30,259 nucleotides of DNA from a virus (taxonomy: Duplodnaviria > Caudoviricetes), in the IMG/VR virus record IMGVR_UViG_3300034411_000253, positions 1 through 30,259 of that record; one strand, written 5' to 3'. The notes under the pieces were generated by a model. That model ran no database searches. It was not told the origin of the DNA and saw only the letters and a list, made by a program, of their open reading frames with translations. A program made the translations under genes and the position numbers. Below, in pieces: positions 2,055 to 20,645 of this stretch. Numbering within the stretch: the first letter of the stretch is position 1; every line of letters begins with the position of its first letter.

Positions 2055-2480
2055 TTATATGTTACAATATTCTTTATAAGCGTCAAAGCACGGGCAACTT
2101 TTCGCGGCAAACTCATTGTGGCCGTGTATAGTAGCGTTAGCATGCATTTTTTTTAATGTTTTAAGAAGCAATAGTAAGCTTTCTTTTTGTTCAGGTGTTC
2201 TAGTATCTTTAGCTATCCATTTGCCATTAGAACCACGTTCTGATTCAACGCCTCCAATATAACAAATACCTATAGAACCTTTATTTTCATTCTTAACATG
2301 AGCACCTTGTTTGTATATAGAGCGACCATATTCTATAGTTCCATCTAGTAAAACTACGTAATGGTAACCTATTCCACTCCATCCTCTTTTTAAGTGCCAT
2401 CTATTTATTTCAGCAGCATCTAAATCTCTACCTTCCTGCGTGGCAGAGCAATGTACTATTATTTTATTTATTATTCTCAT
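2055..2480 (-). CDS. N-acetylmuramoyl-L-alanine amidase endolysin (Amidase_2, T7-lysozyme-like)
   Basis: Motifs IIVHCSAT, GWSGIGYHY, GAHVK, SIGICYIGG, HGHNEF and KSCPCF (Zn ligands His/His/Cys). ATGA overlap with the giant gene. Confidence 0.95.
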   Translation of the reverse strand: MRIINKIIVHCSATQEGRDLDAAEINRWHLKRGWSGIGYHYVVLLDGTIEYGRSIYKQGAHVKNENKGSIGICYIGGVESERGSNGKWIAKDTRTPEQKESLLLLLKTLKKMHANATIHGHNEFAAKSCPCFDAYKEYCNI

Positions 2481-5400
2481 TTTAAATCGTTGTATTTTTC
2501 TTCTAGTTTTTGCAACTTGAACGCAGGTGTTTTTATACCAGATTCTTTTTCTTTTTCATAAAGCTCCTGTCTTACTTCATCAGGTATCATGTATAAGATT
2601 TTTCTTCTATAAGCCTTGTATTCTTTTGATTTCTGCTTGTTTATTTTTCTAGTTTCTTTAGCTTTTTCCTTACCAGCTAATTTTCTAGCAGCTTTAGCTT
2701 TTGTTTTTATTAAATCGTGTTCTTCAATTTTAACACCTGTATCCCATGATCTCCAACCTAAAGCAAGAGCTAGTCTTTGCCACTGTGTATTCCTAGTATC
2801 TAAAGCTTCTGTTATAGAATTTACTTCGTCAACAGCTCTATCTAAGGGTAAGTTTAATGTTGCGGCGGATAAAGAACCTATCATGTTGTACGCAGGGCTT
2901 AACTGAAATTTACCATCTATCATAACATCAAAACCTCTTTCATTTATAACATCTTTCTCATATTGTAAAGTCTGTAATGCTGCATTTATTTTTCTAGCCT
3001 TAGAACCTATAGGTGGTGATATTTGAAGAGCAGCTAATATTATGTCTGCATTTTCCCTAGAGAATTGAGGTTTTTCTTGGTACTCAATAAATTCCCTTAT
3101 GGTGTTTTTAATAGTAACAGCTACAGCTCCTGCTAAACCAGATCCACGAACAATTGAATCAACCATACCGTTAGATATTCTAGCTATTTTATTTTCTTCG
3201 CCTCTAATTTTCTTTTCGTCGTACTTTTCTTTTTCTTTATCTGTTTCAAAATCCTCGTCTTCGTCATCAAATCCTGGTACTAAAGCAAACAATGCATTTT
3301 GAAGTGCGTTAAATATAAAGTTTTGTATAGCACCGTAATATAATATTTTAGATATGTTTTGTTTTTTACTACCTCTTCCATTTATAAGATCTTGACCAGC
3401 TTTTTTAATTAACCTAGTATACTGCATAGGTGTATTTTGAAAAGCTAAAACTAATCTACCTAAAACACTGGACTGTTGACCTGATATAAGCATTGGATCT
3501 GCAGACTGTTGTGTCTCATCTGATATAGCACTAAAGTCTTCAAAAGCTTTTGCTTCTGCTTCATCTGCTTCAAAACCTTGCTTTTTATAAGTATTAATTC
3601 TATTTCTATAAAAAGTTGCACCACCTGTAGATATAGCTATACTATCTGCTATTTGTGTTGGTGTAAAACCTATTTTAAGTAAGTAAGATATAACACCTGT
3701 CATTCCACCTTTTCTAGATGCTTGAGCAATTTCAGCTTCTTGTATATCACCTTCTAATCCAGATCTTCTTTGTTTTAGTTTATCTGAGTTAAATAACTTT
3801 ATAACATCTTTCCAATACTGAGGTTGATTTGCTAAAGCTAAAGCAGCTTGTGCTGGGTTGTTGTCTGACCAGTTAATAAAGTTAGCTGAAGACATTAGCT
3901 GTAATAACGCGGATCTTCTGTTGAAGAACATGATCGCGCCGACAGAATTGTTAACCCAATTATTCCAAGATTCTACTAACCTACCACCGCCACTTGTTTT
4001 GTTATTACCACTTTTCATTCTACGTATAGAATCTTCTAAAGCCTCTCTTACTCTAAATCCATATACCGCTTGTACTTTATTTAAGTTTTTTGGTGAAAAT
4101 ATTATATCTACATTTTCTATAAATTCGCTTAAGTATTCTTTTCTATTAACATCTCTACCAACTCTACTTAAATCACCTATTATAGTGCTAGCGTCCCAAA
4201 ATTCATTTGGCTCTACAAAAGTATCTAATCTAGTTACTAGCTCAACTCCATCGGCAAACTGCACCATGGATTCATTTTTAGATACTAAGTTTACAATCTT
4301 TGCTTGATCTGTTTTACTTAAACCTGGTATAGTAAACCCAGCTCTGTCCCATAAAAATATTCTTACAGCTTCATCTGTCGTATACTTGGTGCCTTCAAAT
4401 TTTTTTCTTAGTTTCTTTTTTATTTTTGGATACTTTTTTATTAAAGCTCTATAATCATTTGTTATCCTTTGCTTTGCTTGCTCTACAGCTCCAACGCCTC
4501 TCATGTAAGGTTTTATTAATGCTTTATCAAAAAATTCTTGATCAGCTTCACCTTGTTTACCTTTTCCAGCAAACGTATACATTGTTAAACCTCTAAAGTC
4601 ATCAGCTGACGGTGGTATAAAGAAAGAAAAACGTTTTTGTTTTTGACCTCTTCTTCTAGCTAGTGCGTCTGAAAAAGTAGCTTTAGCATCAACACCTTTG
4701 TTTCTTTCTATCATAGAGTTAAACTCGTCACTAAGCTTTTCGCTAAACTTTATTCTAGCTTGCTGTACTTTAGACTTAACATCTAAAACACTTAACACGT
4801 CTTTAACCGCTTTGACATTACCTAAGTGATCGTCTGTAAAATAAAAATCATTATATCCTTCAGCAAATTTACCTAACATCCAATCTGCTTTAGCTTGAGG
4901 TCTACCATCGGCTAATCCAGTTATATTTTTTAAAGGTATGTTTAAACCTAAGCTTCCTAAAAATTCTTTAATAGGGCCAGCTGCGTCTTGTGGTCTAGCT
5001 GTTAGTACAAATATATCTTCAGAACCTCTAGCGTCTTGTATCTTTTTTGCTACATCGAACAATGGCCCTTTCTTACCATTCATAACTTTACTGAACTCAG
5101 AAAAATCCCATACAGCTCCTTCTGCTTCCATTCTACCAGCGTCTTTAGCAAACGTACCAGCATCTATTTTACCTTTTGTACCATCAGGCATAGTGTATAA
5201 GACATTGCTTTTAGTTTGAGCTAATGTATCGTCAAAATCAAATACTCTAGCTTTTTTAATTTTCTCAGAGTACTTAGGGCTTCTAGCGTTTCTCATAGCT
5301 TTGTCAGCTATGTTGTCTTTTTTAACTTGCGATTTAGCTTCTGGTTTAAATGTACCTCTAATATAAGGACTACCATCTGCGTTTATATTGTATTTATTTT

Positions 5401-8400
5401 GGAAGTTAACACCATCAATGCTTATTAATCCTTTTGGATCTATACCTCCGTCTACAGTAGCTACTAGCTCGCTAAAATATCTATCGTACCACTTATTGTT
5501 TAACAAGTTCCAACCTATTGGCATTTCACTACGAAGTCCAACAGCTATTAGTTTTTTGTCCATAGCCTTGTCTAGCGATATAAGCTTGTAATTGTCTATA
5601 ACAAAATCATAAGCGCTTTCAAAAGCACTTTTAGATAAAGACACATCTAATAAATACAAATAAGCGGATGTAGCAGGCATAGCATGCTCGTATTCAAATC
5701 TGCTACCTGTAATTTTATTAGAGTAACCCACGAATTGAGCTCCAAGTTTATGCCAGTGTCCAGTGTCACTACCTGTTATTTTTAGATAATTACCTATTAC
5801 TTTAGCATTTTCCTTGTTTGACTGTATAGCTTTATTAAATCTATACCACATAGCTTGATGGATTTTCCCCACCTTTTTATTAAAAGCAGCTATATCACCT
5901 GATTTAACTTTTGCTTTTATAATTTCTTTTGTCTTAAAAAGTGTGTCGTAACCAGATATTGAAAAATCACTAACACCTCTTACAGGTGCACCGTATTTTT
6001 GATTAGTGTCTGTAGCAAGTTTTTTCATTTGATCTACGTAGTACTCTTTGTAAAGAGATTTAGCAATATCAGTTGTACCCAAAACTTTCGACGTTGGTGT
6101 AAATACAGTTCCATAATTACCTTTTTTATTTGGTTTTCCAAACCAAAAATCTTTAGGCATCAAAGGCAGTAAATTCTTTTTAACTTCAGCTACATATTTA
6201 TCTACGTCTTCTCTTGTTTTAAATTTAAAAGTACCATCTATACCATACGCTTTAAGCAATCCATCAACACCTCTTGTTTCTAACTTAAATACTGGGTTAG
6301 CTAGTATGCCTTTTACTTTTTCACTAAACTGAATATCAGATCTACCAGCGCCTATGTCTGCTTGTATTTGTTTAGGTGATCTAGAGGATCTTTGATTTAA
6401 CTTAGAGGCTTTATCTCTAGCTATAGTGTTAGCTACTATAGAACCTTTAAGCTTAGCTATACCACTTAAAAAAGTACCTATGTTTCTATCATACCTATTT
6501 AGTTGACCCATAGGTGTTATACCCATATCTTCTTGCAACTTCTTTACAGTTTCGTTAGATATAGTTCCAGTAAATTCAGGTTTTAATCTTCTCACAAAAG
6601 GTTGACTGCTTAATCCAGATGATCTTTCACCTGTTTTGTCAGCGTAAAAATAATTTAATACTCTACCTTTTAAACCTATAGATCTACCTTGAACGTCTTT
6701 AGATACAGGAATTTTTTCTCCTTTAGTCCCAACCTCAGATTCTTTTGAAGTTACATTTGTAGGAGGTAATAGCTTTATAAACTTTCTAACCTCTTGATCG
6801 TTTCTAAAGTCGTCTTGTATTCTACCTGCTTCAGAATTTTCAGGTATACCGTTTATTATTTTTTTAGCGTAAGTTAAGTTTGCGTTTTTATCAAGCTTAC
6901 CTTCTGATATGTTATAAATAGACGAAGCAATCTTAGTTCCAAATTTACTACTTATAGATTTAAAGTCAGCGTTAAAAGGAGCTATATCACTTTGAGATAT
7001 ATTAACTAGGTTTTCAAGTTTTTTAATATCTGGACTTACAATTTTAAACTTCCTAGGATCTATTTTAGATACTGTTTCTTTAGCTTCTCTAGCTTCTCTT
7101 TCTTCTAGCGTCTCGTTAGAATCTTGTGCAGCTATATCAAAGCCTACACCTATTCTAGTTTGTTTGAAATCTTTAGGTGCAAACTCTTGTTTGTAAAACT
7201 TGTTTGCTCGACCTGCTTTAAATACGTTAAATACGTATGTAGTAAAAGCTTGTTTATTACCATCTTTATCTACAGGTTTATAATTTTTTATAACGCTTTC
7301 AAATTCTGTAGCTACAAACTGAGATGCTTCATCAGCTAGTATATCACCTTTAGCAACATTGTAACCCATGGCATCTAAAGCTACTGATTGATATTGAGTA
7401 AAGAAGTCAAAATATTTATCACCTGTGTTAAATGAGCTAGGATCATTTTTATATTCAACAGCTAATTTGTTTACTGTAGATTTATCTGAAAACTTAGTAT
7501 CTTTACCTTCAAATTCTTGTAAAGCTTTTTTGGTTTTTTTACTTACCTTACCAGCTCTAAATGCCGCGTTATTAGCAGCTAGATAGCTTAAAGCTTTTTC
7601 TGGAGTGTTAAGTTTATTAGGGTTAGTGTTGTTAAACACTCTAGTCATAAAACTATCTTCTTGTTCTATCTGTACTTCATCTTCATAAGCATACAGATAC
7701 TCTTGCATATACTTAGTATATTCATCTCTGTACTTTTCACTATTCTCAAAAGTTAAGTTTTCGTCAGCATATAGATTGTCAAGCATGCTTCTAACGCTTT
7801 TATCTACAGCTTCTATAGCTTTATTATTTGTTTTAGCGGCTGCTGCGGCTAAGTTTTCAGCATATAGCTTTCTGTTCTCTGGTTTTATACGAGCATCATC
7901 AACTATGTGAGAAAATTCATGTAGTATAACTGTTCCAGCTTTAATTTGGCCTTTATCTAAATCTCTTTTTGCCTGATCTTTATCTTGTGTTATTATAGTG
8001 TTACCCATTACAGCACCATAAGTTTCACCATTATTGAATTTAGAAACAGCGTTTTTGTACTCTTCAGAATTAACATCTACACCTTGATTTTCAAGTGCTT
8101 CTTTTAGTTCTTCTTCTGTAGTATATTCTACAATTTTTACACTATTTATATCTGCAAATATATCACTAGCTTTAGCGCTTACGCCTTCTGCCACAGAAAT
8201 AGCTCTTGATCTATCTAAAGCCATTTGATCTCCAAGCTCTCTATATCTAACTTCTTTTTGTTTATTGTTTAAAGGCTTATCGTTTATAGTTTCGTTTTCT
8301 ACGATTTCTACAATCTCAGGATTTGCTTTTGCTGCTCTTTTACTTTCTCTGCTAACGCTCTCTCTTACGTGGTTTATAACAGCTACTATTTGGTCTTCAG

Positions 8401-11400
8401 TAGATTTGGATTTATAGTTATCTTTATTTACTTTTTTTAAATACTTATTGTTATTAGTCCATAGATCACCTAAGCTTTCTTTAGCTTTTTTAGTACTGGT
8501 TGGTTTTTCTTTTATATCTTTAATTTGACTGTCTAATACATTTAGCTGAGTTTCAAATACTTTAGCTTGCTCTTTGCTTAAAGACTCTTTATATGAGTTT
8601 ACAACTTCAGCTTTATCAACGTCAGACATACCAGGCATAACACCTGCTTGTGATAAAAGTTGTGATTTTATCAACTCACTACCTATTAACCTTTTTATGT
8701 CACCAACATCACGACCAAGAATATCCACACCTAATCTATCAAGTTCTAATCCTTGCTCTTGAAGGTTTGAAGCCATGTCAGACAATAATAGCTTTTTCTG
8801 TTTATCATCTAATTTAGAATCTTGTATTAACGTACTAAGCTCGTTATTATTTATTCTAAGCTTGTTTATTTTTTGCTCAAACTTTTTAGTGGCATTGTAG
8901 TTTACCATACCAGAATAAGCAACACCTGGGCTTTGTGAAACACCTAATGTTATTATAGTAGACATAGCGGTATCGTCCCATGCACTAAGATCTAGTTCTC
9001 TATCAAGTATACCATATTCTGTTATAAACTGCTGACCACCATATATTAATTCTTCTTCAGCAAGCTCTCCAGCACCTCTCAGCAACAACGGCTTACCTAT
9101 CAAACTTGCTACTTTTTGATAATTACCTGCGTATAAATTTTGAGCTATACTTGTTAAAGATGTTGGTGATTTAAAATCTTTTAAAAGTTTTATAGTGTTA
9201 GGAGCTGTACCTAAAAACCTAGTTACAGTACCCTCGATTATACCATTAGCTAATGAAGAGTTTACAATTTGAGCATCGCTTATCTCACTCATTGCTTTTG
9301 TTTTGTTTATATCTCTCATAGTTTTAGTATAAGTATATAAATCTATTATGCCACTCTCATAAGCGTTTAAAGCTATTTTAGCTTGCTTGTCAGCTGTTCC
9401 AACTATCTGTTGTTGTGTTTTTAGATCACGATAAGTTTGAGCTCCTGAAGACAAACCAAATAAACCACCAATAGCATTAGCTGTCATAGCAGAAGATAAA
9501 CCAGCCGCTGAACCAACACCACCTGTAGCTATAGCTAAGGTAATATTAGCAGACTGCTGACCTAGTGTTCTAAAAAAGTAAGTACCAAAGTTACCGTCAT
9601 CATAACTACCCATCTTTTCAAAATAGTCATTTTTAGCGTTTAATCTTTGCTGCGCTTCTACAGCCCATTCAGCGTTAACTAAGGTGGGTGCTGCTAACAG
9701 TATTCCAGCAAAAGCATCATTAACATCTTTAGCTAACAAACCACCTATACCGTACTCTTTCATTGAGTTTCTAAAAACATCAGCATCAGCGGGATTAGCT
9801 GCGTAAAATTCCGCAACTTCTCTCTGCATGTTTTCTAAAGTAGCTGAATAGTCTATTTGAAGATTAGCAAAGTCATTTTGTAGTTTGTACATTTCTGACT
9901 GAGCCTGTTTAAGTTTTTTACCTTCTTCAGAACTAAGATTTCTATCGTTAGAAACTGAAAATATAGCCTCACCGCTTGGAGTGTACTCTATACTAATCTC
10001 AGTTCCTTCTGGTGAGTTATTTGAAATTTCTTTAGCTTTTGCACTTAATATATCAACAAACTTTTTTTGTATATTAGGAAGTTCTTTAACTTGAGCTTTT
10101 ATTCTTTCGTCAAACTTTTTTTTCTCAATTTTAGCAACACCTTGACCTAATCTAATTAAGTTTTGATCACCAGAGTTAGCCATTATTTTTTCTGCTATAG
10201 TAGAAGATCTGTCAAGTAATTCTTGGTTTTTTACTTCCTTAATACCAGCAATATACATTTTTTTAATAAAATCCTCACCTCCAGCTTCCTCTATTTTATC
10301 TACAATGTTTTCAGGTAAACCACGCCAGTTTCTCATTCTGATAATATCGTCATCTATTTTACCTGGTACTTTAACCATTTTATCCAGCTTAGCATTATAA
10401 ACCATTTCGCCTATAGCATTGCTTTCCATGTACTCTCTTATTTGGTCTTGCTCTTCCTCGCTAAAACCTTCTGGTAAAACCTGATTTACGTTTGCTATTA
10501 TATCTTCTGCATACGTGTTTTTAAAATACTTTAAATCTAAAGATTTATTAGATTTTATTACTTTTTCTTCAGCTTCAACTTCTCTAGCTTTTGTCTCTAA
10601 GTAATTACTAGTTGCTTCGTAACTACTTTTCTTTATAGATTCATAACCTTCATCTCCTAGATCTTCTTTCATAAAAGATCTTAACTTATCGACATTTATT
10701 TTTTCTTGAACAACAACTCCATCTTTTAAAACATTATAAGAATAAGGTTGGTATGTTCCATCTTTTCTAGAACCACTTGATTGATTTATAGACACGCTAT
10801 AACCTGTAGATTCTAAAGCTTTATTTATAGCTCTATCGTCTTTTGTTTCATCTAGCACATCAGCTAGTTGACCAACAGTGTTAACAATAAGCTCTTCGTC
10901 TGTTTGGCTGTTGTAAACTTGATCTAATTTTTTTAAAACATCTACAGCTTCATCTCTACCGTCTAAAGTAAAAGGCTGTAAATCTAATTCTATTGGTTTG
11001 TCTGTTCCTGGTAGTATTATGTTTAAAGCATTTCTAACACCTGTTTGCTCTATAAAAACACCTGGATAAGCATCCATTAAAAACTCCTGCACCTCTTCCT
11101 CTGTTTTATCTATAATAGACATAGGCTTGCTTATGTCCATATTAGAACCTTGATATGCTTTCTTTAACTTACTTCTTACATTAGAATATCTTTCATCAAG
11201 ACGCATCTTACCTGCTCTAGTACCATTGTACTTGTCACCAAATATACCTCCCGGTTCAACTTTTTCGTATTCCGATAAAATATCTTCCAACTGAGATTCC
11301 AAAGCGAATGTCTCGTCTATCTCCGTTGCTACAGGTACATTCTCTCCTGCAACAACTACTGGCTTTCCCTCTTCAGGTCTTAACACTGTACCTGTTCCTA

Positions 11401-11542
11401 CTGGTTCTTTTTCCTTTATCTTTAAATTAAAAGCACTTACGTATTCTTCTAAAGACATTTCTTCGTAATTAGCATTGTCTTGTACCTCAGCAAGTGTTAA
11501 TTCACCTAAGACTGGGTGTATGTAAATAGGATCTATTGCCAT
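2477..11542 (-). CDS. Giant (3021 aa) virion ejection / polyvalent protein with zincin HExxH and HAD domains
   Basis: Lies after two ejection-type genes at the end of the tail module. Contains a Gly/Ala hydrophobic segment (~9440-9550), VILHEFSH (7907-7921), and HAD motifs DFDDT / LTAR / K / TDD (4751-5260). Largely helical and charged elsewhere. Confidence 0.85.
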   Translation of the reverse strand: MAIDPIYIHPVLGELTLAEVQDNANYEEMSLEEYVSAFNLKIKEKEPVGTGTVLRPEEGKPVVVAGENVPVATEIDETFALESQLEDILSEYEKVEPGGIFGDKYNGTRAGKMRLDERYSNVRSKLKKAYQGSNMDISKPMSIIDKTEEEVQEFLMDAYPGVFIEQTGVRNALNIILPGTDKPIELDLQPFTLDGRDEAVDVLKKLDQVYNSQTDEELIVNTVGQLADVLDETKDDRAINKALESTGYSVSINQSSGSRKDGTYQPYSYNVLKDGVVVQEKINVDKLRSFMKEDLGDEGYESIKKSSYEATSNYLETKAREVEAEEKVIKSNKSLDLKYFKNTYAEDIIANVNQVLPEGFSEEEQDQIREYMESNAIGEMVYNAKLDKMVKVPGKIDDDIIRMRNWRGLPENIVDKIEEAGGEDFIKKMYIAGIKEVKNQELLDRSSTIAEKIMANSGDQNLIRLGQGVAKIEKKKFDERIKAQVKELPNIQKKFVDILSAKAKEISNNSPEGTEISIEYTPSGEAIFSVSNDRNLSSEEGKKLKQAQSEMYKLQNDFANLQIDYSATLENMQREVAEFYAANPADADVFRNSMKEYGIGGLLAKDVNDAFAGILLAAPTLVNAEWAVEAQQRLNAKNDYFEKMGSYDDGNFGTYFFRTLGQQSANITLAIATGGVGSAAGLSSAMTANAIGGLFGLSSGAQTYRDLKTQQQIVGTADKQAKIALNAYESGIIDLYTYTKTMRDINKTKAMSEISDAQIVNSSLANGIIEGTVTRFLGTAPNTIKLLKDFKSPTSLTSIAQNLYAGNYQKVASLIGKPLLLRGAGELAEEELIYGGQQFITEYGILDRELDLSAWDDTAMSTIITLGVSQSPGVAYSGMVNYNATKKFEQKINKLRINNNELSTLIQDSKLDDKQKKLLLSDMASNLQEQGLELDRLGVDILGRDVGDIKRLIGSELIKSQLLSQAGVMPGMSDVDKAEVVNSYKESLSKEQAKVFETQLNVLDSQIKDIKEKPTSTKKAKESLGDLWTNNNKYLKKVNKDNYKSKSTEDQIVAVINHVRESVSRESKRAAKANPEIVEIVENETINDKPLNNKQKEVRYRELGDQMALDRSRAISVAEGVSAKASDIFADINSVKIVEYTTEEELKEALENQGVDVNSEEYKNAVSKFNNGETYGAVMGNTIITQDKDQAKRDLDKGQIKAGTVILHEFSHIVDDARIKPENRKLYAENLAAAAAKTNNKAIEAVDKSVRSMLDNLYADENLTFENSEKYRDEYTKYMQEYLYAYEDEVQIEQEDSFMTRVFNNTNPNKLNTPEKALSYLAANNAAFRAGKVSKKTKKALQEFEGKDTKFSDKSTVNKLAVEYKNDPSSFNTGDKYFDFFTQYQSVALDAMGYNVAKGDILADEASQFVATEFESVIKNYKPVDKDGNKQAFTTYVFNVFKAGRANKFYKQEFAPKDFKQTRIGVGFDIAAQDSNETLEEREAREAKETVSKIDPRKFKIVSPDIKKLENLVNISQSDIAPFNADFKSISSKFGTKIASSIYNISEGKLDKNANLTYAKKIINGIPENSEAGRIQDDFRNDQEVRKFIKLLPPTNVTSKESEVGTKGEKIPVSKDVQGRSIGLKGRVLNYFYADKTGERSSGLSSQPFVRRLKPEFTGTISNETVKKLQEDMGITPMGQLNRYDRNIGTFLSGIAKLKGSIVANTIARDKASKLNQRSSRSPKQIQADIGAGRSDIQFSEKVKGILANPVFKLETRGVDGLLKAYGIDGTFKFKTREDVDKYVAEVKKNLLPLMPKDFWFGKPNKKGNYGTVFTPTSKVLGTTDIAKSLYKEYYVDQMKKLATDTNQKYGAPVRGVSDFSISGYDTLFKTKEIIKAKVKSGDIAAFNKKVGKIHQAMWYRFNKAIQSNKENAKVIGNYLKITGSDTGHWHKLGAQFVGYSNKITGSRFEYEHAMPATSAYLYLLDVSLSKSAFESAYDFVIDNYKLISLDKAMDKKLIAVGLRSEMPIGWNLLNNKWYDRYFSELVATVDGGIDPKGLISIDGVNFQNKYNINADGSPYIRGTFKPEAKSQVKKDNIADKAMRNARSPKYSEKIKKARVFDFDDTLAQTKSNVLYTMPDGTKGKIDAGTFAKDAGRMEAEGAVWDFSEFSKVMNGKKGPLFDVAKKIQDARGSEDIFVLTARPQDAAGPIKEFLGSLGLNIPLKNITGLADGRPQAKADWMLGKFAEGYNDFYFTDDHLGNVKAVKDVLSVLDVKSKVQQARIKFSEKLSDEFNSMIERNKGVDAKATFSDALARRRGQKQKRFSFFIPPSADDFRGLTMYTFAGKGKQGEADQEFFDKALIKPYMRGVGAVEQAKQRITNDYRALIKKYPKIKKKLRKKFEGTKYTTDEAVRIFLWDRAGFTIPGLSKTDQAKIVNLVSKNESMVQFADGVELVTRLDTFVEPNEFWDASTIIGDLSRVGRDVNRKEYLSEFIENVDIIFSPKNLNKVQAVYGFRVREALEDSIRRMKSGNNKTSGGGRLVESWNNWVNNSVGAIMFFNRRSALLQLMSSANFINWSDNNPAQAALALANQPQYWKDVIKLFNSDKLKQRRSGLEGDIQEAEIAQASRKGGMTGVISYLLKIGFTPTQIADSIAISTGGATFYRNRINTYKKQGFEADEAEAKAFEDFSAISDETQQSADPMLISGQQSSVLGRLVLAFQNTPMQYTRLIKKAGQDLINGRGSKKQNISKILYYGAIQNFIFNALQNALFALVPGFDDEDEDFETDKEKEKYDEKKIRGEENKIARISNGMVDSIVRGSGLAGAVAVTIKNTIREFIEYQEKPQFSRENADIILAALQISPPIGSKARKINAALQTLQYEKDVINERGFDVMIDGKFQLSPAYNMIGSLSAATLNLPLDRAVDEVNSITEALDTRNTQWQRLALALGWRSWDTGVKIEEHDLIKTKAKAARKLAGKEKAKETRKINKQKSKEYKAYRRKILYMIPDEVRQELYEKEKESGIKTPAFKLQKLEEKYNDLK

Positions 11543-11560: not shown

Positions 11561-13216
11561 TTAACGATAAAGTTTCTTAGCTTGTTCAAAAGTCTTACCT
11601 TCACCAGTTGGGTCTCCATCTTTATTTTCTATCATGAACAAGTCCGTTGATGGCTTGTAAATAAGTTTTCTACCACCTGTTCCATCGCCTAAAGTTCTTG
11701 CTACTTCAAAAAACTCTTTTGCTGCATCTTCACCTTCTGCAAACACGTCTTTATATAATTTAAGTCTTCTTTCGTTAGCATCTCCAGTAAATTCTTTTGA
11801 ATTGTTGCTGTTATTCTTTGAAGGTTTAGAAACATCACTTTCTTCTATGTAAAAATATTGCTCCGTGCCTGGTTTAACATTGCTTACATCAACTCCAGCT
11901 TCTTTAAGTTCATCTATCTGCTCTTGCGTTATCATTCTCTTTTGAAGTTCTAATCCATTAACTTTTTGATTAACAAACTTTCCAGTTGCAGCATCTCTTT
12001 CTTGACCTAAGTTAAAATGAGTTAAAAAATCATCGTTAATATATCCAAGTATTTCTTGCTGAACATCCTCTTCTGAGAATTTTCCAGATTTGATTTGATC
12101 AGCATAATCTATACCAGCTCTACCTAAAGATTCTAAGTAGTTATAAGCATCTTGCTGATCTGTAGGATTTCCTTGCAGCATTCTTGTTATTGTACCTGCT
12201 TTAGCGTTAAATAAATTTTTCATAGAGCTTAATGCTCCTTCTATATTAACAAACTCCATAGACTTAACTTGGTCTAAGGTATCTCCTTTTGTTTTTGTTC
12301 CTGCTAATTTATGTTTATATTGCTTGTTTAATTGCCCGTTTTTTACTACATTAAACTCTTTAGCCTGCGCATTATAATCTATTTCAGGTATTATGTTTTG
12401 TCTAGCAATATTACCATCCCAACTACCGTCAGATAAGTTTCTGCTCCAATCAACATTTATATAACCGTCAACTACAGGGTATTTACTTTCATCACTATAA
12501 GAAGCCGCTTCTGGGGTTCCTGCTTTTATCTTAAACGAAAGTTTCATTATTGATTCAAGATCTCCTTTTGAGTTTTGTACTCTTTCAAAAGCTCTATTTG
12601 TAACTTCTACATTACTAGGCAGAGGCTTGTTGTATATACTAGAACCAACTAAATAGTTAGTATATTGTCCAGCCCCTGTACCAGATAAATAGTAACCTTT
12701 TGCACCACTAATTACTTTTTCAAAATCTTCTTTGTCAGCTAATGGTATTGCAGCTTCTTTAGAAAAGTTACTAAAAGTTCTTTGTTGGCTTGCTATAGCC
12801 TTTTGGTATTTTTTTCTTGTCTCTGAATCTAAGTCTAGATTTGAGTTAACCTCTGCAGCCATCTTTATAGTACCTATTCCATAGTCTTTTTTAAAACCCT
12901 TGTACTCATAAACACCTCCATACATCTCAAACTCAACTTGCTCTCTTGCTTGTTCTATAAAGCCTTTATCAGCGCCCTCATCTTCTAATTTTATAAAGTT
13001 AGCTTCTGATGCTTCTAGAGCTTTTTGCTCTGCAGATATATATGATTTTTGATATATTTCTTTTTTCTTTTGTACTATGTCAGCTTGTTTATTTCTAGCC
13101 TCTACCACTTGGTTAAAGCCAGACACTAAAGCTGCTGAAACTTGGCTAGACGCATCGGCCCAAGCTTTTGCACCGTATAAATCTTGTATTATTGTTGGAT
13201 TAGTATATGCACTCAT
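11561..13216 (-). CDS. Putative internal virion (ejection/cargo) protein, 551 aa
   Basis: Middle gene of a small/medium/giant trio typical of podovirus ejectosome loci, with a coiled-coil-like N-terminus. Function inferred from synteny only. Confidence 0.6.
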   Translation of the reverse strand: MSAYTNPTIIQDLYGAKAWADASSQVSAALVSGFNQVVEARNKQADIVQKKKEIYQKSYISAEQKALEASEANFIKLEDEGADKGFIEQAREQVEFEMYGGVYEYKGFKKDYGIGTIKMAAEVNSNLDLDSETRKKYQKAIASQQRTFSNFSKEAAIPLADKEDFEKVISGAKGYYLSGTGAGQYTNYLVGSSIYNKPLPSNVEVTNRAFERVQNSKGDLESIMKLSFKIKAGTPEAASYSDESKYPVVDGYINVDWSRNLSDGSWDGNIARQNIIPEIDYNAQAKEFNVVKNGQLNKQYKHKLAGTKTKGDTLDQVKSMEFVNIEGALSSMKNLFNAKAGTITRMLQGNPTDQQDAYNYLESLGRAGIDYADQIKSGKFSEEDVQQEILGYINDDFLTHFNLGQERDAATGKFVNQKVNGLELQKRMITQEQIDELKEAGVDVSNVKPGTEQYFYIEESDVSKPSKNNSNNSKEFTGDANERRLKLYKDVFAEGEDAAKEFFEVARTLGDGTGGRKLIYKPSTDLFMIENKDGDPTGEGKTFEQAKKLYR

Positions 13217-13228
13217 GTTTTGTACTTT

Positions 13229-13966
13229 TTATGGGTTAAACCAGGTTCCTTGCTGAGCACCACCAACAGCCGACGCCATACCAACTACTCCTGATACAGC
13301 ACTACCCCATGCTTGAGCTTTTGCTTGGTTAGCGGAAGCTTGATTCGCCATGGCTTGCTGTTGTTGTCCAGCTGCTCTAGCTAAATCTGCGTTACTTCTG
13401 TTTTCCTCTGTTTGCATTACAAATTGTTCTCCAGCCGCCATTTGAGTTTGCATTCTCTGTCCTTCTGATATTTGTATACCTTGTATTCTTTGTGCTTCAC
13501 TCATTTGAAGCATTTCCATTTTTTGTTGACCTTGCGCTCTTAATTTTTCATTAGCAACTTCTTGTTGTTCTATACTAGCTGATACTCCTTTTTTACTAGC
13601 TAAAGCTGCTTGTGCTAAAGCAGTTGCACCACCAGCGCTTGCACCTGTAGTTGCTAGTGTATCTAAAGAATTAGCTAAAGCCATATCAGCTTGTTCCATT
13701 TGTATTTCAGAGGCTTGAGTGGCAACAGACATACTAGCGAAAGGATTAGATACCATATCACTTAAATTAGAAGCTAAACTAGATAGATTACTATTACCTG
13801 CATAAGGATTTGTTATAGGAACTCTTTCAGCTTTTATTCTGTCTATTTCTCGTTGAGCTCTTGATGCTGCTCTACCGGCTCTTTTAGCGGCCTTGTCCGC
13901 TTGATTCGCTGACACAGCTCCACCTATAAGAGAAACTCCAGCTCCAATTGCTGCTATTGCTGCCAT
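13229..13966 (-). CDS. Putative DNA ejection / pilot protein, 245 aa
   Basis: Hydrophobic Ala/Gly N- and C-termini (MAAIAAIGAGVSLIGGAVS; WGSAVSGVVGMASAVGG) flank an Ala/Gln coiled coil, the architecture of T7 gp14 / P22 gp7-type proteins. Confidence 0.7.
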   Translation of the reverse strand: MAAIAAIGAGVSLIGGAVSANQADKAAKRAGRAASRAQREIDRIKAERVPITNPYAGNSNLSSLASNLSDMVSNPFASMSVATQASEIQMEQADMALANSLDTLATTGASAGGATALAQAALASKKGVSASIEQQEVANEKLRAQGQQKMEMLQMSEAQRIQGIQISEGQRMQTQMAAGEQFVMQTEENRSNADLARAAGQQQQAMANQASANQAKAQAWGSAVSGVVGMASAVGGAQQGTWFNP

Positions 13967-13967
13967 A

Positions 13968-14381
13968 TTATTTTATTTTTTTAATTATTTCATGTGATGG
14001 ATTTTCGTCCACCGTGTACCCTAATTTTTTGTGTTTATCTATTAGACTTTTGCTTCTACCTATACTAAGTATTAATTTAAAACCTCCATCATAAGCCCAT
14101 TGCTCTAATGAATCTATTAACAGTAGTATAGCTTGCTCTCTGTCTTTTTTAATTCTATATTTTGGATTTGATATTATCCACTCCATCCAAGCTATTTTTG
14201 AATTTGTTGCATATAGAAAACCCGCTACTATAGGTTCACCTTCTTTTTCTATTATTATTCCACCTGTGCCATTTTCAGGTAACATTTCTTGTGACAAAGG
14301 TTCCCACTCAGGCCAAGACTTCCACCATTCTACGATAGTGTTATAGTCTTTTTCAATTAATCTTCTTGCTGTTAATTCCAT
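13968..14381 (-). CDS. GNAT-fold-like virion assembly protein, 137 aa
   Basis: GNAT-like pattern (RRLIEKDY...GIIIEKEGEPIVAGFLY...EWIISNPKYR...HKKLGY). Lies between the nozzle and ejection genes, like T7 gp13 / P22 gp14. Confidence 0.65.
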   Translation of the reverse strand: MELTARRLIEKDYNTIVEWWKSWPEWEPLSQEMLPENGTGGIIIEKEGEPIVAGFLYATNSKIAWMEWIISNPKYRIKKDREQAILLLIDSLEQWAYDGGFKLILSIGRSKSLIDKHKKLGYTVDENPSHEIIKKIK

Positions 14382-14391
14382 TTAATTTCAT

Positions 14392-15687
14392 TTAATAAGA
14401 TGATTCAGAGTAGTTTGATGATAGCGCAAATAACTCATTTGTTCCAGAGCTAGTTGTGTTTGTAGCTCTTAATTTTACTGTTGCAAAGAATCCTTTAACT
14501 CCGGATATTGATCTACCGTATATAACCTCACCTCCAGTAGCAGCCGATGTATTTATTAAGTTTGCAAAATACTTATCTTCTTTTCTTTTAAATTCATTTC
14601 TAAATAAACTACTTTCCATGTTAGCTAGCGTTGTCGGTAAAGTGTATACCGCTATTGGATTTGCTGAATCTTCATTTGTAACAAAGCTTTCCATAGACCA
14701 ATTAAAATTACCTTCGTAATTAACTGTTTTGAATGTTTTTATTAAAGAAGGATTTGTGTTTAATATACTAGTAACAGTTGAGTCATACTGAACTCCGTAA
14801 AAATTAGCTCTAGGTAAAACACCACCATTATTATCTCTATCAACATAATGCTTGTATAAAGAACCACTTTTAGTAGAAAAGAAACTGTTTTGTATGCTAA
14901 ACATTTGTCTAGGTATATAGCTTAACGTACTTGTCCAGCCTTTTACTTGCTCGTCAAAAGTTACAGTTACCGGTAAGCCTGACGTAGAGGTTTGTAAAGA
15001 CAAAACATAAGCTTTATTATATATATCGTAACCACCTACAGCTTTTCCAGCTTCTAATATACCAAACTGATCTCTAAAAAAGTCATACATACCATAGTTA
15101 GATATTTCAGTTATACCATCTCTAGACAGTCTAAGAACAGATCCTTGAGACGCGTCAGTGAAATATTTTCTGTAACCATAAACAGCAAAAGACTCTGGAT
15201 TTTTTGCAATTCCAAATTCACCTGCATATGGTTGTATAGCTCCAATAACTACATTAGATGTAGTTTGAACTGGTAAACCTTCTTGAGTGTATATAGCGTC
15301 TTTATCTATTAAAGCTCTATTAACTTTTCTTTCTTGAAATATAGTTAAATTAGTATCTTCAGCGTATAGTTTTTGTATACTACCTTTTGATGGGTCTACA
15401 GTTCTAGTTATATCTTGACCAGATGGAAAAACATTTGTTTGATTTACACCTGTTCTAGAGTTTACAACGCCAGAATATATAATAGAGTTAGCTAAAAGTT
15501 GTTGGGTGTTTTCATCTGAAGCTAAAAAAGCTCTAGGAGCTAACCCGGTTTGTACGTTGTTATAGCCACCTCTAATTCTAGCTTCTTCAATATACCAATC
15601 ATACTCAGTTCTAGAAGGCCCAGTCTGTCTGTTTATTTTTTTTAAAACGTATGTGTTATAATATTTTACTGGTATAGCTGTAGCCAT
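14392..15687 (-). CDS. Tail muzzle / stabilisation protein, C-terminal beta-propeller part
   Basis: Motifs GSIQKLYAEDTNLTIFQERKV, YAGEFGIAKNPESFA, YFTDASQGSVLRLSRDGITEIS, FDEQVKGWTS and FKTVNYEG resemble the C-terminal half of crAss-like muzzle (P22 gp10 / T7 gp12-equivalent) proteins. Confidence 0.7.
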   Translation of the reverse strand: MATAIPVKYYNTYVLKKINRQTGPSRTEYDWYIEEARIRGGYNNVQTGLAPRAFLASDENTQQLLANSIIYSGVVNSRTGVNQTNVFPSGQDITRTVDPSKGSIQKLYAEDTNLTIFQERKVNRALIDKDAIYTQEGLPVQTTSNVVIGAIQPYAGEFGIAKNPESFAVYGYRKYFTDASQGSVLRLSRDGITEISNYGMYDFFRDQFGILEAGKAVGGYDIYNKAYVLSLQTSTSGLPVTVTFDEQVKGWTSTLSYIPRQMFSIQNSFFSTKSGSLYKHYVDRDNNGGVLPRANFYGVQYDSTVTSILNTNPSLIKTFKTVNYEGNFNWSMESFVTNEDSANPIAVYTLPTTLANMESSLFRNEFKRKEDKYFANLINTSAATGGEVIYGRSISGVKGFFATVKLRATNTTSSGTNELFALSSNYSESSY

Positions 15688-15722: not shown

Positions 15723-18700
15723 TTATGGTCCTACAAATCCACCTGATGGAACCACTGTTGGAAATACAGTTGGATCTGATGTACCAGTACCTCCTCTTAG
15801 ATAAAACGGTGGGTCTGCCATTGGAACTTGAGTTAAATTTGTTCCTGGGTTTTGTATAGTTGGTGTTTGGCTAGAAGGAAGGTACGTAACTATAGCACCA
15901 GCATAACCAGTTGGAGTAACACCTGGCCAGTTTTCATTTCGTGTCATTTCTATTTTTAAGTTAACCGCTGCACTAGGTTGAAAATTGTATGTGCCTGTAT
16001 TAGTTGTTGGTGTAGGATTTTTTTCACCTGGGCTAACTCCCTCTGTTATTTGAGTTGAAGTTCTAGAAAGACCTTGTAAAGTAGCGACTCTTTGAAAGGA
16101 ACCAGTAAAACCTGTATTTTGGTTTAAACCAGTACTCGTTTGGTCAAAAACACCATATCCACCTACAGTGGTAGTACCGCTACCTAATGTGCCATCAGGG
16201 TATGTACCTCCGTTTTCAGTGATGGCTCTAACATTACAAAAACCAGGGTTTTGTTTACTAGAGGCAACCCATATACTTATATCGTTTGCTGTCCAGTTTT
16301 GAACTTGACCTTGCCATATAGGTAAATTGGTTGAGCTTGTAATAGTGTTTAGTGATATATCTGACTGAGTCCCTTCATATGCTGGACTTGGATTTCCTTG
16401 TGTGTAAGAAGCATATACTACTTGACCAGTATAGTTAGCTGCCCCAACAGTGTAGCTCATATAGGTATACGTAACAGCTCCAACATCGTCTGTAAGACTA
16501 AAATATAAAGAATAAGAACCTACTTGATGGTAGTTACCAGTAGTACTGTTACCTGAACATACAAATTGTCTATACTTAATAGGGCTTGAGCCCGGTGAAG
16601 CTGTTTGGTTAGCTTGATACACAATGCTTGCAAAATCACTTATATTTCCAGAAGTACCAGAGTTGCCAGGGTAAACGCCCCAATATGTTGTAGTTCCAGA
16701 ATTATCTACATATCTAGCGCCTACAATATCCCAACCGTTGTTACTACTAAAAGTTGCAGAATCACCATTAGTTGGATACCCAATTCCTGATGTTATAGCG
16801 CTACCATTTAAACCTAATGGACTAAGACTACTTGCACCTGAATTTGGATACATACCGACTATTAGCCCTCCGGTATAAGGTATTGTAAAAGGAGGTAGAG
16901 TGTTAATTATAACAGGTGGATCGTTTTGCAATTGTAAAGTTACAGTTTCAAAAGTTTCAACACCACCTAAAGTCCATTTAAGATTAACTTCAAATTTACC
17001 TCTCCACGTAACATCATATAAGTTTGAGTTACTACCACCAGCAAAAAACCCGTTAGGATCATTAGGCCCTTGAGCTGTAGTTATGTTAAAACTACCATCA
17101 CCAACAGCTACTAAACCAAATCTACTTATATAATCTATATTAGTATCTATAGCTTGTGTTGATGGGTTGTAAGAAAAAATATTTACAATAGAACATGAAG
17201 CAGATGTAACTATTTGACCTCCACTTGTTGGAAAAAAGTTACCAGTTATAGTACTACCTACGGCATCATTTTCAGAAAAAGAAACTGTTACGCTTGAAAA
17301 AGTAGATCCATTTATATCACCACTTTCATTTTGTATATCAACATTTAAATCAGATATAAGTTGTGCTGAAGAGGTTTCGTAAAATAACTCTAACTGTGAT
17401 ACAAAAGGAGATGTTTCATAAACAGCTAAACCTAAATTAGCCGGATAAGGATTACTACCTGTAGGTATGGTGTACAGTTGCTCATCTAAACCTACTGGTT
17501 TTCTAGTAGATATTTTAGCTACATAAGGCTTAGTGTTGAAGTTGTATATAGAATACGGGTTAACCTCACCTGGATCTGATGGGATAGGTGTTGTTTCATC
17601 TCCAGTTAAAAGAGGAAATACATCTTTTATTGTCCCAACTAAATCAACTGAGTCAGGTGAGAACGCGGGATCAAATTGTTTTGTTTGAGTTGAAAAATTA
17701 TTTACAACTACTGGAACTATGTTTGTTACTCTAGGAAACATTGTTTCATCAGATGTAAATTGATCTTGTAGTGGACCAACATCCTGCAAGTTTCTAGGTA
17801 CTTTGTTTATGTTGTCAGATATTAATGTTATAAAACCAGTCTCTCCCTCTTCTAATGTAGAGGCTTTAATTGGATAACCGTTTACTATACCAGGTAAATA
17901 AACATTGTAATAATCTTGCTGTTGTTGTTTTACCCCAAACTTGTAAGTATAAAAACCATTTACGTTTATATCGTAAGTAGCACGAGTCATATTTGACGAC
18001 AAATCAGGTTCTGGTTGTTGAAGATCTGGTGTATTAGAAAACAAGTACTTAATGTCTATTTCTTCCTTAGTCTGTATTGTTATATCATATATAGGTGTTG
18101 AGCTAGAAGGTGTTACCGTTACTATATCAGTATAGTCTATGTATTGACCTGACATTTTTTTACCAACTGAAAAACATCTATTATAGTTTGTAGGAAAATT
18201 TTCAAACAAAAGCCCGGTACCATCAGAACGTACGCCAGCAGAACCTAACTTATATTGGTAGTATTTTTTAGGACCAAATAACAACTCCACTTTAACGTTG
18301 AACCCAGGGGTTATAGCACTACCAAAAACTACATTTACGTGAGCTAAACTAACACTTGCAGTATAATCAGAATTAAGTGTTTTTAATATCCAGCCATTAC
18401 CTTCATTAACATACACGTTAAGAGTGTTAGCATTATTTTGAAAGTCAACGGCTTTAATAGAATAAGCAAAAAACGTTGTTGTTAGAGTTGTTGTGTTTGC
18501 GGTAAAGTATTGGTAACTTTCACTTTCAAAAAAAGGATATAAAGCACCAGTACCTGTCCCGCTTGTTCCATCTTCAATGTTTACAGCGTAATACTCTCCT
18601 TGAGCATAAGATCCTGGATAACCTGATGTTAAAGAATTTTCTGGTATTGGTTGAAGATAATTTACCGAAAGCGTATCACCAGGCCAGTTTATGATGTTAC

Positions 18701-20645
18701 CATTAAACTGCAAAGTGTTATAATCAGAGAAAACGTTAGAGCCTGGTTGAGGATCGCCGTTGACATCAAGTAGTCCATCATAGTTAGACAAAACAATATC
18801 TGTTTGTCTACCAAACTTATCCGCTAAAACTATACCAACTTGATAATTTCTATTTTGCTTTAACGAATGCTGTGGATACTCTATAAATTGTTGAGTAGAT
18901 TTATCAGCAACAGAAGCATAATAGTCTAAACCTAACGGTGCAGTATAGCTTTCTACATAATTAGAATATAGTATTCTATTACCACTAGACTCTTGCGCTA
19001 AAGCTCTAACAGGCACTTTGTCAAAAACTCTAGTGGTTTCAGACTGCGGCATTGTTTTTATAGGTTGCTTTGACTGGTAGTTATATTGATATATATTAGT
19101 GTAATTTAAATTACTTATAAAAGCAGCATCAACATCTACTTTCTCTAATATTTGATAAGCCTGCTTATCTGACTCTTTATATATTATCTCTATAGCTTTT
19201 ACCTTATAGTTATTTATTATGTCTATACAGGGAAGTTGAATATTTAACACAGCATTGTTGATACTGTTTTGCATAAACTCAACTACAGTAGTAATAAAAG
19301 CTTGTGTTTCATCATCATTAATAAATTTACCTTGATGTTCAGGAATAAAAACATCTTGACTAAAAGGAGCTACTACTGAGTATTCGTTGTCATCAAACTT
19401 GAACCTGTAGCTAAATCTAACAAATTTGTCTTTTAACAATTCCGGATCTCCATTCCAACCGTTGTAACCTGCTTGTTTTATAACTCTTACAGACATTCCA
19501 TAAGAAGCTGGACTTGTTAAGTTTGTTACTGGCAGAGCATTAGTGTTGCTCCAATTAACGTAAAGATTATTTGTAGTAATAGCATCACTTGTCCAATATC
19601 TAGCTCTTGTGGTTAACTCTCTAAAGTCATTACTAATAGATGCACCTTGTCTCCAGCCACCAGGCTTGACGTTCATTCCGTTAGCATTTGTGTTTGCTTG
19701 AGGTGGATTGTCCCAAAGCGTTGTGCTTTTGAAAAGATTAGAAGTAGCTCCACCAGCGGCTATAATACCATTCCATTGTGCAGTTGTTGGTATTGTAAAC
19801 CCTATAGGCGCTAGACCTCTAGAATCCATTACAGCGTATTTGTTGTATAAAACACCATATGTTACTTCATTTCCTATATACTCATCATAATAACAAAAAG
19901 CACCGTACTCTCCAGTGTCAGCATCTTGCCATGAAGCTAAAGTCTGTGCTTCAACTATTGGATCTCCGTTTCTATATCTAGTCACAGCTAGGTTAGAGTC
20001 GCTAACCTCAAAAATACCTACCGGTACAGTGTCTGGGTCAGCAGCGTTTGTCATTGTAGAAGGATAGGTATCTGTTTCTGGTGTATAATTATTTATAAGA
20101 GGTGCTCTTAAGTTTAAATACTCAGGCGGAAATATTGGTGCAAACTTAGCTACAGAAATTTGATCTTCATTAAAGTAGTAAGTAGAAGGTTGCTCTATAT
20201 TTATTTTTCTAGGTTGATTTCTATTGTCTGTCCAAAACAATAAGTTTTCAACTAAATTAACACCAAGCACTGGGTTTAATGTTGAAAAGTTTAACCAATA
20301 TCCTTCAACTTTTACGTTTGTAGTACTAAGTATAGAATTGTATACTAATATCTGACACAGGGCTGTACTTGGCGCTAATCCAACACCACTCCAGTCTGTT
20401 TTAAAATAGTACACAAGAGAGTTAGCATCATCTACAAAATAACCTATTATTTCACCAGCATCATCATGTTCTTCAGATGTAACTTTGATATTACCTAATA
20501 TAGACTCTAAAGCACCTACATCGCTTGCTTCTGATCTAGAAACAGCTATATTTAAAGCGTCTCTGTATTCGTTATTTGGGATAAGTCTCTCGTCTAAATC
20601 TTTATTCATTTTAGACCTAATGAAACTATTCTTAGCTTCTGCCAT
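15723..20645 (-). CDS. Tail muzzle / stabilisation protein, N-terminal part, with inserted FISUMP and Ig/cadherin-like domains (1640 aa)
   Basis: Starts MAEAKNSFIRSKMNKDLDERLIPNNEYRDALNI and contains LLFWTDNRNQPRKINI, FVRFSYRFKFDDNEYS, GNRILYSNY and SLKQNRNYQVGIVLADKFGR, motifs typical of crAss-like tail stabilisation proteins. C-terminus is G/S/T/N-rich. Confidence 0.75.
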   Translation of the reverse strand: MAEAKNSFIRSKMNKDLDERLIPNNEYRDALNIAVSRSEASDVGALESILGNIKVTSEEHDDAGEIIGYFVDDANSLVYYFKTDWSGVGLAPSTALCQILVYNSILSTTNVKVEGYWLNFSTLNPVLGVNLVENLLFWTDNRNQPRKINIEQPSTYYFNEDQISVAKFAPIFPPEYLNLRAPLINNYTPETDTYPSTMTNAADPDTVPVGIFEVSDSNLAVTRYRNGDPIVEAQTLASWQDADTGEYGAFCYYDEYIGNEVTYGVLYNKYAVMDSRGLAPIGFTIPTTAQWNGIIAAGGATSNLFKSTTLWDNPPQANTNANGMNVKPGGWRQGASISNDFRELTTRARYWTSDAITTNNLYVNWSNTNALPVTNLTSPASYGMSVRVIKQAGYNGWNGDPELLKDKFVRFSYRFKFDDNEYSVVAPFSQDVFIPEHQGKFINDDETQAFITTVVEFMQNSINNAVLNIQLPCIDIINNYKVKAIEIIYKESDKQAYQILEKVDVDAAFISNLNYTNIYQYNYQSKQPIKTMPQSETTRVFDKVPVRALAQESSGNRILYSNYVESYTAPLGLDYYASVADKSTQQFIEYPQHSLKQNRNYQVGIVLADKFGRQTDIVLSNYDGLLDVNGDPQPGSNVFSDYNTLQFNGNIINWPGDTLSVNYLQPIPENSLTSGYPGSYAQGEYYAVNIEDGTSGTGTGALYPFFESESYQYFTANTTTLTTTFFAYSIKAVDFQNNANTLNVYVNEGNGWILKTLNSDYTASVSLAHVNVVFGSAITPGFNVKVELLFGPKKYYQYKLGSAGVRSDGTGLLFENFPTNYNRCFSVGKKMSGQYIDYTDIVTVTPSSSTPIYDITIQTKEEIDIKYLFSNTPDLQQPEPDLSSNMTRATYDINVNGFYTYKFGVKQQQQDYYNVYLPGIVNGYPIKASTLEEGETGFITLISDNINKVPRNLQDVGPLQDQFTSDETMFPRVTNIVPVVVNNFSTQTKQFDPAFSPDSVDLVGTIKDVFPLLTGDETTPIPSDPGEVNPYSIYNFNTKPYVAKISTRKPVGLDEQLYTIPTGSNPYPANLGLAVYETSPFVSQLELFYETSSAQLISDLNVDIQNESGDINGSTFSSVTVSFSENDAVGSTITGNFFPTSGGQIVTSASCSIVNIFSYNPSTQAIDTNIDYISRFGLVAVGDGSFNITTAQGPNDPNGFFAGGSNSNLYDVTWRGKFEVNLKWTLGGVETFETVTLQLQNDPPVIINTLPPFTIPYTGGLIVGMYPNSGASSLSPLGLNGSAITSGIGYPTNGDSATFSSNNGWDIVGARYVDNSGTTTYWGVYPGNSGTSGNISDFASIVYQANQTASPGSSPIKYRQFVCSGNSTTGNYHQVGSYSLYFSLTDDVGAVTYTYMSYTVGAANYTGQVVYASYTQGNPSPAYEGTQSDISLNTITSSTNLPIWQGQVQNWTANDISIWVASSKQNPGFCNVRAITENGGTYPDGTLGSGTTTVGGYGVFDQTSTGLNQNTGFTGSFQRVATLQGLSRTSTQITEGVSPGEKNPTPTTNTGTYNFQPSAAVNLKIEMTRNENWPGVTPTGYAGAIVTYLPSSQTPTIQNPGTNLTQVPMADPPFYLRGGTGTSDPTVFPTVVPSGGFVGP

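Follow-up and report, generated by a model that had tools for sequence, protein, structure and literature searches.

Known ways for a phage to begin early transcription are from host-like promoters, with an injected polymerase, or with injected enzymes that modify the host polymerase. The crAss-like and P23-45 phages carry a virion RNA polymerase, and so does N4 (PMC5512222). Very large proteins encoded at virion loci are also found among the zincin polyvalent proteins, in which an HExxH peptidase stands between swappable cargo domains (Iyer et al. 2017, PMC5512222); the main text of that survey does not contain the word 'sigma'. T4 gp55, a small free protein that is made during infection for the late genes and has gp33 and gp45 as partners, binds the β′ clamp helices through three acidic residues of its helix 3 (PMC7892883), and the cited sections of a jumbo-phage survey describe only free phage sigma factors (PMC7824862). 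For a virion-delivered sigma factor, a full-text literature search, judged by titles only, gave no matching title; if true, an injected sigma factor would be a further route to early transcription. Such a factor had been proposed by a first-pass annotation of the DNA described here, as a sigma70 region-2-like module embedded in an ejected protein. We find that the module is a sigma-derived domain 2 followed by a linker and a new basic domain, all inside a giant protein. The reading that we favour, at a little under an even chance, is that an injected gp55-like sigma module fires the first promoter class through the host core RNA polymerase.

The giant protein and its locus

The window, that is, the whole stretch of DNA that was analysed, is a virus record of 30,259 bases, about 47% complete, from an uncultured marine phage. 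Its minus strand holds a virion block with terminase, portal, capsid, and ring and muzzle genes, the last followed by genes for proteins of 137, 245, 551, and 3,021 aa and then by an amidase. The capsid is closest to those of Maribacter phage Panino and of ctfjg026, a Manatee Spring record (both 46%), followed by the elemo phages (38-39%) and Callevirus phi38:1 (34%), and from these affinities we infer a Flavobacteriia host. The parallel with crAss-like phages that had been drawn for this locus stands in part: the locus is of the virion type, and the phage falls outside the crAssviruses proper, with a capsid nearest to those of Panino, the elemo phages, and Callevirus. The gene order is that of phi38:1 gp097-gp101, all annotated as structural, of which gp098-gp101 are the last four genes of the equivalent block; and a profile of 55 family rows, searched against the ORFs of four loci, matches phi38:1 gp101 at aa 86-763 (E 4.3e-9). 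The 551-aa and 245-aa genes (11561..13966, minus strand) occupy the positions of the structural genes gp100 and gp099 and likely encode two further ejection proteins; for the 245-aa product the match to gp099 has E 6e-6. The 137-aa gene (13968-14381, minus strand) is conserved in this position in phi38:1, Panino, elemoF, and ctfjg026; its annotation is structural in phi38:1 and acetyltransferase-like in ctfjg026. The muzzle-like gene, single in phi38:1 and elemoF, is split in the window into two ORFs (15723-20645 and 14392-15687, minus strand), the first with a Fib_succ_major insertion (PF09603, E 8e-22).

The final gene of the block, at 2477..11542 on the minus strand and in the place of phi38:1 gp101, encodes the giant of 3,021 aa. 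By analogy it is likely an ejected polyvalent protein, packed in the particle and injected. Because cultured phages lack the module, packaging rests on the structural annotation of phi38:1 gp101; the cited parts of PMC13288928 and PMC8776804 hold no statement on gp101 in phi38:1 virions. Judged by its sequence, the giant has the marks of a polyvalent protein, being very large and multidomain with a zincin HExxH. This motif of a likely zincin metallopeptidase (aa 1208-1212; 7907..7921, minus strand) lies just upstream of the module, and its H, E, and H, together with a downstream E, hardly vary across 55 rows; the motif is found no more than 320 aa upstream of the sigma-like domain in 102 of 116 relatives. 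The module is bounded by short junctions of the form [KQ][FY]S[DE]K, which are candidate cleavage sites: KFSDK before it (aa 1350-1354; 7481..7495, minus strand) and QFSEK at its close (6317..6331, minus strand; Ser in 34 of 36 rows). Further copies follow along the giant at 5261-5275 and 4736-4750, which places the junctions after the module at aa 1738, 2090, and 2265. Two more FS-bounded cargoes are seen on the minus strand. One of about 350 aa (5276-6316), in which an EHAxP motif is conserved with a His upstream of it, is possibly a metal-binding nuclease-like domain; the other (4751-5275) has a DxDxT motif, presumably of the HAD-phosphatase type, and no Pfam match or PDB sequence match. 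Many relatives carry kinase-like domains (PF06414/PF13671) somewhere in the giant. Pfam and PHROGs scans of the window's giant and its pieces were empty.

Sequence evidence for a sigma domain 2

The stretch singled out by the first-pass annotation was recovered at 7180-7480 on the minus strand, as aa 1355-1454 of ORF 2477..11542, directly after KFSDK. It is part of a four-helix domain resembling domain 2 of the sigma70 family (aa 1350-1459; 7166..7495, minus strand; regions 1.2-2.4), a likeness that had been noticed by eye and that family profiles and the predicted fold bear out. Single sequences do not reveal it. Sigma70_r2 (PF04542), the profile against which the stretch was to be compared, matched neither the giant, nor its pieces, nor any of 15 members taken singly; it is absent among the 25 families listed for 51 members, again as single sequences, and has zero candidates in the window's own record. 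Across 50 relatives all 14 PF04542 matches fall in frames of 251-265 aa and none in the giant. With family profiles, Staphylococcus aureus SigB (8x6g_H) is the top PDB match of three profiles (E 4.4e-5, 9.2e-4, and 2.9e-4), followed in one of them by two ECF sigmas (E 0.11 and 0.64) with an unrelated enzyme in between (E 0.08). When a family profile was run against 73 bacterial ORFs from 19 sigma loci, 19 of which are sigma factors, the best eight were all sigma factors. Comparison by hhalign with a 19-sequence sigma-2 profile scored 26.4 (42%, E 2.6e-4), against 11.0 +/- 2.3 for 60 block shuffles (maximum 17.5), 12.4 for the reversed profile, and 31.7 for a true phage sigma. With 134 rows, that is, the matches covering most of the domain plus the query, this rose to 75% (E 2.5e-5) over 68 columns of regions 2.1-2.4. 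Against single RpoD or the separate sigma of the same phages, hhalign gave 0.2-0.3%, and the module is thus not a recent copy of that separate sigma. The ESM Atlas, which we take as a lead only, returned unnamed viral clusters (0.90) and one cluster (0.88) with 15% PF04542.

Predicted fold and functional positions

The predicted model of the module (pLDDT 83) has helices at residues 5-17, 26-43, 54-71, and 84-105, and is disordered at 107-126. A structure search of 48,161 chains gave 29 rows with Z of at least 5; 27 of these are, by entry title, sigma or sigma-like chains, and all the sigma rows at this level align on model residues 1-110. The best match is T4 gp55 (rmsd 3.3, 96 aligned residues) with Z 8.4, a value within the range that the search tool gives as common for helical bundles; SigB follows with Z 7.8. 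The Foldseek comparison that had been suggested, made with the two-domain model, went the same way in rank and fell short in significance: SigI1 came first, at an E of only 0.068, and no PDB match had E <= 0.001. A chance four-helix arrangement would account for the missing Pfam match, for the failure of hhalign against single RpoD or the phage's own sigma, and for a Z below 13; sequence profiles and the fold search, however, independently put sigma factors first and in the same register. The sigma-2 case is built on this agreement, and chance is so improbable that we give it next to no weight: the likeness exceeds chance and is visible only via family profiles and fold.

The NYxP...FTTY pattern, whose loss among homologues would have spoken against a sigma module, is conserved in the 134 rows as aromatic-[DNK]-P ... 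F-[STG]-[TE]-aromatic. Position 1421 is aromatic in 134/134 rows, F1433 is kept in 103, T1435 in 98, and 1436 is aromatic or His in 126; these four align with F419, F427, T429, and Y430 of sigma70, where T429 is the fulcrum and Y430 stacks on the -11A (PMC4496690). Conservation of the columns matching T429 and Y430, melting residues of region 2.3, may also serve the fold. Those matching W433/W434 hold A/N/S and N/T, so that the W-dyad is absent from the 134 rows. Helix 3, by which gp55 binds the polymerase, is acidic at 1404 in 78, at 1405 in 75, at 1408 in 57, and at 1412 in 68 of the 134 rows, with none of these positions invariant and with a register that is uncertain by the three residues separating HMMER from hhalign. 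Nor is any other core-binding position invariant in this set.

Linker and basic domain

Behind region 2.4 lies a disordered linker (aa 1456-1475; 7118..7177, minus strand; pLDDT < 50) at the start of an acidic stretch. In 74 of 129 rows region 2.4 is followed by a [ST][IL]D word, compared with 410 of 9202 background windows (4.5%); it is degenerate in the window copy and sits where a sigma-3.2-type linker would. We liken this word to sigma 3.2 by eye, and in one subfamily a longer word after region 2.4 presumably resembles the sigma-3.2 linker as well. Where sigma3 and sigma4 would be expected there is, in the predicted model (pLDDT 88, pTM 0.89), a basic domain of 252 aa (aa 1490-1741; 6320..7075, minus strand; pI 9.9), which is a candidate DNA-binding part. 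The region-4-like helix-turn-helix that the first-pass annotation had suggested looking for in aa 1480-1738 was not found there among the families compared (hhalign against sigma4 0.4%, E 0.13; no sigma4 row in the structure search, best Z 2.9), and neither sequence nor structure comparison with solved entries gave a known fold. The domain thus appears to be a confidently predicted fold without a solved match. Foldseek returned a single viral relative only, and bacterial genome contigs gave no match. Room for such a domain exists downstream in 123 of 150 listed representatives, and 67 carry it by profile; other downstream regions, among the matches listed, are more divergent basic domains ending at a similar FS junction.

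These features also bear on the possibility that the sigma-2 fold now serves a purpose unconnected with RNA polymerase, the module and its basic domain instead piloting or protecting the incoming DNA, for example at single-stranded ends or early repeats. Such a role would suit the basic character of the C domain, the lack of invariant core-binding residues, and the company of unrelated cargo (HExxH and DxDxT, with the kinase-like PF06414/PF13671 in relatives), and polyvalent proteins do occasionally carry DNA-binding domains (PMC5512222). It would leave unexplained why the linker motif and the acidic stripe of helix 3 are kept, and why these phages use non-host signals yet show no polymerase motif; we regard it as improbable.

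Spread and divergence of the module

The module belongs to a large family, and its conservation there speaks for the proposal. Of 7,894 candidates, 113 are relatives of the stretch aa 1350-1745, and a search of 1.84 billion representatives with a profile of the first 119 residues yields at least 227 clusters (50% identity, E <= 0.001). Large as it is, the family is without a cultured member: tblastn with the module, the N-terminal, and the C-terminal parts gave no match in 50,697 phage records. Seven short matches look like fragments and do not establish a stand-alone form. Between subfamilies the module region is 14-24% identical, compared with 54-73% for the separate sigma and 47-77% for the C-terminal part of the giant (alignments under 20% being rough, and the tail of G035 omitted, since the contig apparently ends within its giant), and the early signal described below is unchanged. 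The module has apparently been swapped between close relatives (L034, L036, and L043). G047 and G048 share 73% of the separate sigma and 77% of the giant's tail, and 23% of the module region. G046 and G048 were considered as genomes lacking the sigma and rejected, the separate sigma being present; likewise G047 and G050 were rejected as genomes lacking the module, since a divergent one lies at the same place, its pooled C domain matching at 98.6% and its pooled sigma-2 part at only 23% (E 9e-4).

Separate sigma factor and promoter-like signals

A separate sigma of 251-256 aa with regions 2 and 4, which the first-pass annotation did not consider, is present in all 11 relatives that are at least 90% complete, nine detected by PF04542 and two, one of them cut by the contig end, by a family profile. 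The full-length 251-aa form (L129:1402-2154; G001:C1:7528-8283) is 49-80% identical across the clade, and from its sequence it would compete with the module as reader of the early promoters. The phage sigma is also seen on contigs, most of them short, from metagenome bins that bear labels such as Aliivibrio, Arcobacter, Clostridium, and an archaeon (L135-L151); these contigs are likely misbinned phage DNA. In line with the suggestion that a sigma factor might stand in for the virion RNA polymerase of crAss-like phages, no RNA polymerase motif was found in 16 relatives: a search by motif patterns only, on ORFs cut at 20-kb borders, gave no DxDxD-type motif in the giant of G003 (94% identical) or in the long ORFs of these relatives, with the lone exception of a DLDID in one 462-aa ORF.

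The early arm opens with small genes, and these are preceded by the signal TACAAACTAAATAC[AG]-N10-GATAATATAW, with a 15-bp upstream block. A matrix trained on three genomes detects 56 sites in 10 genomes, with at most 0.3 expected in each, and 42 of the 56 lie in seven genomes outside the training set. There are 0 sites in phi38:1, ctfjg026, elemoF, and the window, which lacks the early arm; six more records hold 7, 7, 1, 6, 0, and 1 (weak), the last two apparently without the head of the arm. Copies number 1-8 per genome and are found at G001:C1 615-4804 and 68015-69038 and in 13 further relatives. In 12 genomes, four of whose records were read as circular, 63 of 65 sites precede the separate sigma gene and share its strand. 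The signal differs from the flavobacterial sigma-A box TAnnTTTG (PMC9723704) and is of a non-host type. Host-type TTG-N17-23-TAnnTTTG occurs 4-21 times per relative, compared with 7-16 expected, and does not cluster at the head of the early arm. A second signal, TAAA-N14/15-TGTRAK, was picked by eye from the same genomes used to test it and is found in 17 of 201 upstream gaps with 1 antisense (shuffles: mean 1.2, maximum 5). It directly follows the sigma gene in 9/9 genomes, and 6 genomes also have it where the virion arm begins, for example upstream of G001:C1 8346 (plus strand) and 67748 (minus strand), and in 9 further relatives.

A short box, AC[AT][AT]GT[AG]AT, precedes the 310-aa and 431-aa virion genes of the window (22918 and 15710, minus strand) and also virion genes of relatives; on its sequence it is possibly a late, -10-only signal. 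With this box before some virion genes, and with T4 gp55, itself a late factor, as the closest structure, one may ask whether the module acts late and not at entry, being produced along with the virion proteins to serve as a late factor of the gp55 kind or as a feedback regulator, with any packaged copy incidental. A gene at the far end of the late block, however, cannot supply the factor by which this block is started, and it is the separate sigma that sits just before the second promoter class; we hold a late role to be very improbable.

None of the relatives compared was seen to uncouple the module from the separate sigma and the early signal; all three are absent from phi38:1, ctfjg026, and elemoF. 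Because the three travel together, the reader of the early signal is not assignable by presence. The injected module might be a decoy or competitor on the host core polymerase (or on a host anti-sigma or regulator) that displaces host sigmas and does not read phage promoters, with the separate sigma reading the early signal after a leaky first transcription. The module changes far faster than its flanks, like a host-tuned effector, whereas the early signal goes with the separate sigma, which is conserved and whose sigma2 and sigma4 suit a two-block signal; moreover, the module lacks the W-dyad and is variable in region 2.4. Yet with nearly all early sites upstream of its own gene the separate sigma would be needed for its own first transcription, no reader would remain for the second non-host class, the T429/Y430-type positions are kept, and a large basic domain is always attached to the module. 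On balance we judge the decoy rather unlikely, though less so than the other alternatives.

A possible two-sigma cascade

In the reading that we favour, with the injected module itself firing the first promoter class, the giant would be packaged and ejected, as its gene position and its likeness to phi38:1 gp101 suggest. A module of about 390 aa would then be released at the FS junctions by the neighbouring HExxH peptidase, and its helix 3 would bind the β′ clamp helices in the manner of gp55. In the early signal the GATAAT box would be opened by the sigma-2 part, while the 15-bp upstream block TACAAACTAAATAC[AG] would be read by the basic domain that stands in for sigma4. The early block would make the separate 251-aa sigma, which in turn would read TAAA-N14/15-TGTRAK in front of the replication and virion genes. 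Such a cascade is consistent with two non-host signals and two sigma-like proteins in phages that show no polymerase motif. In its favour are the sigma-2 fold and profile, the T429/Y430-type positions, the acidic stripe of helix 3 in about half of the rows, and the absence of early signal and sigma from the records without the module. The main result against it is the divergence of the module under an unchanged early signal, since the reader of a fixed signal should not be what changes fastest; the absent W-dyad, the lack of an invariant core-binding position, and a Z that is common for helical bundles also count against it. That a widespread clade of marine flavobacterial phages opens infection with a virion-delivered sigma, complete with a self-processing giant, a new DNA-binding fold for sigma4, and a two-sigma cascade, is accordingly put forward as a tentative scenario whose chance of being right in full we set somewhat below one half.

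Comparison with known systems

The virion RNA polymerases of N4, the crAss-like phages, and P23-45 offer a functional parallel, that of a giant virion protein with a proposed role in launching early transcription at phage-specific signals; unlike them, the giant has no catalytic polymerase motif, here or in the 16 relatives, and only the specificity part would be delivered. At the same gene position lie phi38:1 gp101 (Pervagoviridae), whose N-terminal part is homologous, and the giants of Panino, elemoF, and ctfjg026, all without the module. A sigma-2-like domain in a longer chain is also seen in AR9 7S01_A (Z 6.2, rmsd 3.5, 101 residues), which we take to be the promoter-specificity subunit of the AR9 non-virion RNA polymerase; in contrast to the module it serves a phage-encoded polymerase, and the C domain has no match to it among the rows listed. 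With group 3 and ECF sigmas (SigB 8X6G, SigK, SigI, and SigE) the module shares regions 1.2-2.4, by profile and fold, and a linker after region 2.4, and it departs from them in having no sigma4 match and no W-dyad, in scoring below the PF04542 cut-off, and in not being a stand-alone gene. Like T4 gp55 (PDB 7D7D), it is a sigma-2 homology domain without sigma4 in a phage without its own polymerase (PMC7892883); whereas gp55 is a small free late factor, the module, 7% identical to it, forms part of a 3,021-aa protein from a virion locus, where it is joined to a basic domain of 250 aa. With the zincin polyvalent proteins the giant has in common its size, its virion locus, and an HExxH set between swappable cargo domains (PMC5512222). 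The module is thus a real sigma-2 homologue in a new setting, which extends the themes of both gp55 and the polyvalent proteins.
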